From Escherichia coli (GTDB lineage Bacteria; Pseudomonadota; Gammaproteobacteria; Enterobacterales; Enterobacteriaceae), in NCBI RefSeq assembly GCF_003334405.1, contig NZ_QOWM01000001.1: 64,000 nucleotides of DNA; one strand, 5' to 3'. Below the pieces are notes generated by a model that had not been told where the DNA came from, did not search any database, and saw nothing but the letters and a program-made list of their open reading frames with translations. Positions 49,941 to 50,181 of the stretch are shown one piece after another. How positions within the stretch are numbered: the first letter of the stretch is position 1; each line of letters begins with the position of its first letter. A program made the translations under genes and the position numbers.

Positions 49941-49994
49941 TGTGAATGTGGTCCGCATTCGGTCATAAACGCACATAACATCATGATCTGTGTG

Positions 49995-50181
49995 GTTTTG
50001 TAGGCCGGATAAGGCGTTCACGCCGCATCCGGCAACAGGAGCCAAATGCCGGATGCAACGCTGGCGCGTTTTATCCGGCCTACAATAAGCTCAACATACT
50101 GATTTGTATGGTTTTGTAGGCCGGATAAGGCGTTCAAGCCGCATCCGGCGACAGGAACCAAATGCCGGATGCGTCTCTGGT
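49995..50181. repeat. BIME: cluster of 3-4 REP elements in alternating orientation between mglC and preA
   Basis: Repeated gtaggccggataaggcgttcacgccgcatccggc units and their inverted copies. Confidence 0.85.

Follow-up and report, generated by a model that had tools for sequence, protein, structure and literature searches.

The 242-nt spacer between the convergent genes mglC and preA of Escherichia coli (positions 49941-50182 of the window, i.e. the whole 64-kb stretch of DNA that was analysed) is wholly extragenic and holds a BIME-2-type REP array of two tandem 116-bp units, in which the last Z2 is cut short at the preA stop codon (Table 1). The duplication of the unit is local and older than the diversification of E. 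coli, and it is not a peculiarity of K-12. The array itself is an ordinary one, already known and catalogued, and both its tandem structure and its copy-number variation are textbook for BIME-2. We consider the whole explanation, a BIME-2 array with an old local duplication, in-register deletions and a role as a 3'-end barrier and terminator, to be probable.

Table 1. Features of the mglC-preA spacer and its flanks (window positions; strand where one applies)
Feature	Position	Strand	Description
mglC	48930..49940	+	galactose/methylgalactoside ABC transporter permease, last mglBAC gene; stop 49938-49940; ORF and RefSeq annotation
Unique leader	49941..49976		36 nt after the mglC stop; REP homology undetectable
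l-like leader	49977..49999		shares homology with the right-hand part of the inter-unit spacer; begins direct-repeat copy 1 (49977-50064)
Y-type REP 1	50000..50033	+	GTAG, then imperfect palindrome with 2-nt internal mismatch; covered by the Rfam naRNA4 match 50003-50080
S1 linker	50034..50047		head-to-head linker AACAGGAGCCAAAT, 14 nt
Z2-like REP	50048..50083	-	inverted; palindrome plus CTAC, 36 nt; inverted repeat and Rfam match
Tail-to-tail spacer ('l' type)	50084..50115		32 nt, locus-specific; IHF-consensus match 50092-50104 (-)
Y-type REP 2	50116..50149	+	inverted repeat; 32/34 identical to Y-type REP 1
S2 linker	50150..50163		GACAGGAACCAAAT, 14 nt
Truncated Z2 head	50164..50180	-	GCCGGATGCGTCTCTGG, 17 nt; closes direct-repeat copy 2 (50093-50180); 2 nt from the preA stop
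TT	50181-50182		between the truncated Z2 head and the preA stop
Rho-binding region	50151..50219	-	in vitro, NusG-plus, preA sense; literature table, MG1655 2236464-2236532 (+)
preA	50183..51418	-	NAD-dependent dihydropyrimidine dehydrogenase subunit; stop at 50183-50185 (+ strand); MG1655 2235265-2236500

A REP is an imperfect palindrome of ~30-40 nt that is interrupted internally by a mismatch of two bases and follows a conserved GTAG, read as CTAC on the opposite strand (PMC3333891). The palindromes of the two Y-type REPs and of the Z2-like REP have arms of 12-14 nt with 83-86% complementarity, and the REP tetranucleotides are in place, GTAG at 50000 and 50116 and CTAC at 50080. The first Y REP and the Z2-like REP together make an inverted doublet whose outer and inner arms (15 nt and 10 nt, respectively) are perfectly complementary. 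As expected of multi-copy REP sequences, a 361-nt query matched every one of the 5426 E. coli genomes, at 9-51 places each (median 38). The array contains seven REP-like heads and is the only cluster with more than two of them in the 64 kb. Elsewhere in the window, a degenerate REP-like pair at 60243-60318 overlaps the position given for REP154 (yohD/yohF) in a preprint table, and a lone REP head, ACGCCGCATCCGGC, lies at 53939-53948 (approximately MG1655 2232735-2232744), just upstream of sanA. The remaining Rfam matches that exceed the gathering score, a tRNA at 680-753 (-), an L25 ribosomal-protein leader at 4469-4494 (-) and a Peptidase-S11 RNA motif at 61729-61809 (+), were taken as ordinary.

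BIME-2 elements consist of z2 and y REPs in inverse orientation, joined by a short S linker and flanked by s, l or r motifs; they form tandem arrays whose multiple copies are well conserved at any one locus and differ in number from strain to strain (Ton-Hoang et al., 2012; PMC3333891). Every one of these sequence-level features was found in the mglC-preA spacer: alternation of Y and Z2, 14-nt S linkers, tandem units and a 32-nt tail-to-tail spacer. The array thus resembles the BIME-2 arrays of Gilson, Bachellier and Hofnung (in PMC3333891) in its alternating inverted REPs of Y and Z2 length, its 14-nt S linker with a longer tail-to-tail spacer, the tandem repetition of the whole unit, its extragenic position at 3' ends and its strain-variable copy number. 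It differs from them in having only two units, the second with a truncated Z2, and the assignment to Y and Z2 carries the caveat that the Z2-like REP deviates from the consensus for canonical Z2, with GCCGGATG/TATCCGGC in place of GCCTGATG/TATCAGGC, which in comparison with REP325 is a paired change of G/C for T/A that keeps the stem.

The Rfam model naRNA4 (RF02564), which describes a Y-linker-Z2 module, matches 50003-50080 over positions 1-77 of its 77 with 88.3 bits (gathering score 59.5), whereas the second unit scores 38 bits, below the threshold. The module is that of REP325, the array in the yjdM-yjdN spacer of MG1655, with which the mglC-preA array shares the Y-S-Z2 module, the tandem arrangement and a constant spacer. 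The Y REPs of REP325 are near-identical to the first Y REP of the mglC-preA array, and the Y-S-Z2 block of unit 1 is 87-89% identical to each REP325 unit. REP325 differs in comprising six units, which recur every 100 nt and are separated by a 16-nt spacer without similarity to that of the mglC-preA array, in lying between tandem rather than convergent genes and in the near-identity of its units to each other, as against 89% here. The inverted REP doublet, with GTAG and CTAC flanking the palindromes, is also reminiscent of the REPINs of Bertels and Rainey; no RAYT gene was found in the 64-kb window.

The 242-nt spacer is identical to that of E. coli K-12 MG1655, for which REP156 is listed at 2236684-2236535 as a convergent element of the pair preA/mglC (bioRxiv 10.64898/2026.03.23.713779, supplementary table); the element has therefore already been catalogued. 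After conversion of coordinates, REP156 (MG1655 2236535-2236684) corresponds to window positions 49999-50148. The MG1655 RefSeq annotation carries no repeat_region feature at the spacer, and a literature search for mglC together with REP or BIME returned nothing specific to the locus. Together with the naRNA4 match and the repeat anatomy, the REP156 entry bears out the proposal of the first-pass annotation, made from the letters of the window alone, that a REP/BIME cluster lies between mglC and preA; the identities that it gave to the two genes (mglC ending at 49940 on the plus strand and preA at 50183 on the minus strand) are also correct. Over 10 kb around the locus, the window and MG1655 differ at only two positions, 44268 (T for A, inside the span of yeiB) and 47682 (G for T in mglA, where codon 97 becomes GTA, Val, instead of TTA, Leu). 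The source of the window is therefore a K-12-like strain other than MG1655.

A repeat search returned a single family of direct repeats in the array, an 88-nt sequence present at 49977-50064 and again at 50093-50180 with 89% identity (78/88) and a spacing of 116. Across the 242-nt spacer, identity at a shift of 116 is 0.714, as compared with a mean of 0.352 (sd 0.02, maximum 0.43) for the best shift in 500 dinucleotide-preserving shuffles. Tandem Repeats Finder reported no repeat on the array, as is to be expected when it falls short of two full copies. Self-comparison shows that the similarity extends past the REP palindromes, into the leader and spacer (49977-50000 against 50093-50116, 20/24) as well as the linkers (12/13). 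Unit 1 has 28 nt without a counterpart in unit 2 (50065-50092), which cover the 3' arm of the Z2 REP together with CTAC and the first part of the spacer. These measurements agree well with the earlier description of tandem units of ~90% identity at about 49975..50085 and 50093..50181. The unit size of ~85 bp that went with it is close to the 88 nt of the copies but not to the first of these blocks, which is 111 nt long because of the 28 nt absent from unit 2; likewise, a REP pair had been assigned to each unit, which is right for unit 1 (Y plus Z2-like REP), whereas unit 2 has a Y REP and a 17-nt truncated head. The tandem structure had moreover been singled out as an internal duplication within the cluster. 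Tandem it is, but it is no additional feature, being the defining organization of BIME-2 (PMC3333891). As a separate matter, the leader at 49941-49976 was considered as a decayed third Z2 REP and this was rejected, since its local alignments score no better than those of shuffles: 787 of 1000 shuffles scored at least as high against the Z2 and spacer of the array, and 952 of 1000 against the first Z2 of the 'E. coli' strain SCPM-O-B-8794 (see below).

The likeness of the two units might simply reflect membership in one family, if two BIMEs had been inserted side by side independently, without any local duplication. The REP parts alone are indeed undecisive on this point, since those of unit 1 are about equally close to REP325 (87-89%) and to unit 2 (~90%). 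What speaks against independent insertions, and makes us regard them as quite unlikely, is the DNA between the REPs: the repeat runs in register into the non-REP leader and spacer (20/24), and a 33-nt query over the spacer (50083-50115) matched 2825 of the 5426 complete E. coli genomes, where it has a median of one site each, with at most three matches in any genome and six extra places in total. No similarity was found between the mglC-preA spacer and that of REP325, and BIME spacers in general are locus-specific yet conserved among the tandem copies at one locus (PMC3333891). Because the repeated unit includes non-REP DNA that is found once per genome, the duplication was a local one. The second unit may have been produced by TnpA-REP or by recombination or slippage, origins that would look alike in the sequence.

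The adjacency of the copies, their 89% identity and the existence of a single-unit allele could also be taken to indicate a recent duplication, private to K-12, in an otherwise single-unit REP cluster. To this reading we give hardly any credence. Divergent lineages share the two-unit allele, which was found in 2825 of the 5426 genomes, and the other two-unit alleles are 5-7% diverged, which argues against a recent horizontal spread of the K-12 allele. In a comparison of five distinct two-unit E. coli alleles, copies of unit 1 shared 81-88 of 88 positions with each other and copies of unit 2 shared 80-88, as compared with 74-79 of 88 between unit 1 and unit 2; orthologous units being closer than paralogous ones, the duplication predates the divergence of the lineages compared. 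In addition, E. albertii has a derivative of the array, and the single-unit allele is itself a derived recombinant that is confined to O157:H7-type genomes. Nor was a duplication added to a single unit, since the 28 nt at 50065-50092 are underivable from a one-unit ancestor. The simplest reading is that Escherichia had an ancestral multi-unit BIME-2 array, which was trimmed differently by lineage.

Analysis of the distribution of the alleles bore out the earlier expectation that copy number at this locus varies between strains. Among 5,426 E. coli genomes, ~52% carry the 242-nt spacer and ~45% one of 70 nt, and the one-unit spacer of 126 nt accounts for ~1%. A query consisting of the mglC and preA flanks only had no match in 12 of the 5426 genomes; in a sample of 60 genomes taken evenly down the ranking from that query, the spacer was 242 nt long in 31, 70 nt in 27 and 35 nt in one, the remaining record being preTA-less. 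The 70-nt allele comprises a perfect head-to-head hairpin (GCCGGATGC-GCT-GCATCCGGC), the S linker and the truncated head, and its linker resembles the E. whittamii type. The 35-nt allele (ETEC4068) differs from the 70-nt allele by a deletion of exactly 35 nt between two copies of GCCGGATGCG. The 126-nt allele (HB6) results from an exact deletion of 116 nt that joins the leader of unit 1 to the REP of unit 2; it was found in at least 40 genomes, all of the O157:H7 type (57 records at >=99% identity in a direct search), and some other O157:H7 genomes keep two units. In E. albertii, ~44 nt were lost between two GCCGGAT repeats. All three deletions arose independently and in register, between direct repeats 88, 10 and 7 nt long, and fit what replication slippage or recombination across hairpin DNA would be predicted to leave; enzyme-driven models, in which TnpA-REP changes copy number, have been put forward as well (PMC3333891).

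Several individual records deserve mention. A two-unit variant with a 243-nt spacer, in which 22 of the 33 spacer bases match, is present in O157:H7 strain TR01 (NZ_CP033605.1). The record labelled 'E. coli Nissle 1917' (NZ_CP171242.1, 2700-3136) is without preT and preA, with the two-unit array intact, and exactly at the expected preA stop its sequence passes into DNA from upstream of yeiS; this preTA loss could be an engineered or a natural deletion. In strain 673 (NZ_CP141196.1, 1-555), the 70-nt allele and preA are normal and mglC is replaced except for its last ~20 nt, by a sequence unlike anything in the 64-kb window in whichever orientation it was compared; either a rearrangement or an assembly problem lies behind this. 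Finally, FDAARGOS_1300 and 382634_2f have GTAT instead of GTAG before the Y REP in both units, which hints at gene conversion between units, and SCPM-O-B-8794 has it in unit 2. Since GTAG is required for the binding of TnpA-REP (PMC3333891), arrays with GTAT may no longer be its substrates.

A scan with a degenerate pattern for the mglC 3' end, covering one genome per species, yielded 101 loci. All six Escherichia loci have a REP array at this spot, with 1 to 2.5 units in spacers of 112-280 nt. The longest is that of the 'E. coli' strain SCPM-O-B-8794 (280 nt), which reads Z2-l-Y-S-Z2-l-Y-S-Z2 and thus has a full Z2 where the K-12 array has the truncated head. Two others, E. whittamii (151 nt) and strain E69 (152 nt), read Z2-l-Y-S-truncated Z2, and E1V33 (130 nt) reads Z2-s-Y-S-truncated Z2, with a spacer of 's' length (11 nt). 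The leader is present in E. albertii (197 nt; leader-Y-S-Z2-l-truncated Z2, the second Y and S having been lost) and in MOD1-EC7003 (112 nt; leader-Y-S-truncated Z2). No REP array was found in the 95 non-Escherichia mglC loci (0/95), which have at most two REP-like heads in the first 350 nt. In most of these loci a T-run follows the mglC stop at a distance of ~35-45 nt, and those that were read show a hairpin-plus-T-run terminator, which places the REP array of Escherichia where a terminator would otherwise be.

The first-pass annotation had also suggested binding of IHF, and an IHF-binding element of the BIME-1 (RIB/RIP) type would account for the putative match to the IHF consensus WATCARNNNNTTR at 50092-50104 (-), with the sequence AATCAGTATGTTG, in the inter-unit spacer; by eye, the spacers of E. 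albertii, SCPM-O-B-8794 and MOD1-EC7003 retain this match. We consider such an element very unlikely and the suggestion of IHF binding fails on the linkers. BIME-1 is a single-copy element made up of one Y and one Z1 REP with a long L linker that bears the IHF site, whereas the array is in tandem, its partner REP is of Z2 length (36 nt) and its head-to-head linkers are of the 14-nt S type, so that the canonical IHF-binding L linker is absent (PMC3333891). The IHF pattern has 13 matches in the 64 kb (4.5 expected from shuffles) and ~0.05 expected per 242 nt, and the match in the spacer is suggestive at most of a candidate site. In vivo, DNA gyrase binds BIME-2 elements and cleaves them (Espeli and Boccard, 1997, cited in PMC4550694); gyrase, rather than IHF, is the documented partner of this class.

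The RF02564 match above the gathering score might alternatively be read as the mark of a gene whose product, a nucleoid-associated non-coding RNA like naRNA4, would condense the chromosome together with HU, the role proposed for the REP325 units, whose 77-nt Y-linker-Z2 module is naRNA4 (PMC4550694). However, the model describes the Y-linker-Z2 pair as such, so that a match shows class membership only. The second unit remains below the threshold, no promoter-like site was found in 49600-50500, and the part of naRNA4 in HU-dependent nucleoid condensation is itself disputed (bioRxiv 10.64898/2026.03.23.713779). An RNA gene of this kind at mglC-preA therefore appears highly improbable to us.

In either direction, the RNA of the spacer is predicted to fold strongly, with -118.3 kcal/mol in mglC sense (z = -9.1 vs shuffles) and -104.4 kcal/mol in preA sense (z = -7.4). 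A search of 49600-50500 for intrinsic terminators returned one weak site, against 0.8 expected by chance, and none above chance in either direction. The array resembles bidirectional terminators in its position between two convergent operons and in its strongly folding palindromic RNA on both strands, but it is without a G+C-rich hairpin followed by a U-run, and termination, if any, would be mediated by REP or Rho. A Rho/NusG site has been located in vitro, in preA sense, 3 bp from REP156, and REP325 acts as a partly Rho-dependent terminator and a stabilizer of upstream mRNA (bioRxiv 10.64898/2026.03.23.713779). According to the same work, REPs are present in 207 of 704 convergent spacers, in gene pairs that are more highly expressed, and no genome-wide difference in half-life was found for REP-terminated genes.

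By analogy with these elements, the mglC-preA array is likely to be a bidirectional 3'-end barrier and a partial, partly Rho-dependent terminator for the mglBAC and preTA transcripts; stabilization of the mRNA at this locus is plausible on the same grounds. From what is known of the family, the array would have arisen from, and would persist as, REP/BIME DNA, on which the REP-associated tyrosine transposase TnpA-REP would act and which would be open to slippage during replication or to unequal recombination. When transcribed from either side, it would give rise to stable hairpins that block exonucleases at the 3' ends, and the same hairpins may terminate transcription partially and in a partly Rho-dependent manner, so that the array would replace the hairpin-plus-T-run terminator found after mglC in other Enterobacteriaceae. 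Two units are dispensable for whatever the array does, and the exact copy number is probably near neutral, since nearly half of the E. coli genomes (~45%) have the 70-nt spacer and some have 35 nt.

The end of preA is unusually close to the array, which begins 2 nt past the stop codon; the 9-bp head-to-head stem begins 10 nt past it. The PreA coding end predates the array, since the ending ...V(T/A/S)L* is also found in Kluyvera and Pseudocitrobacter, both without REP. In SCPM-O-B-8794, E. whittamii and E69, the preA stop is TAG and coincides with the CTAC of the last REP (CTACAA, a Leu codon plus the stop on the other strand); K-12 has TTACAA (TAA stop) after the truncated Z2 head (window 50164-50188). 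Liang, Rudd and Deutscher reportedly found, in 2015, that REP hairpins this near a stop codon stall terminating ribosomes. The preTA operon is reported to inactivate fluoropyrimidine drugs.

The value of the locus is thus a modest one, as a clean worked example of an ancient two-unit array and three deletions at one place. Mildly unusual are the genus-specific swap of a classical terminator for REP hairpins, the clean allelic series and the abutment of the array on the preA stop. That the natural allelic series (242, 126, 70 and 35 nt in E. coli; 112-280 nt in other Escherichia) tunes the flanking operons, preTA being the clearest candidate, seems to us unlikely, though not fanciful; if it does, REP copy number could set PreA output strain by strain. 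The natural alleles provide ready material for the effect of REP copy number on two convergent operons.
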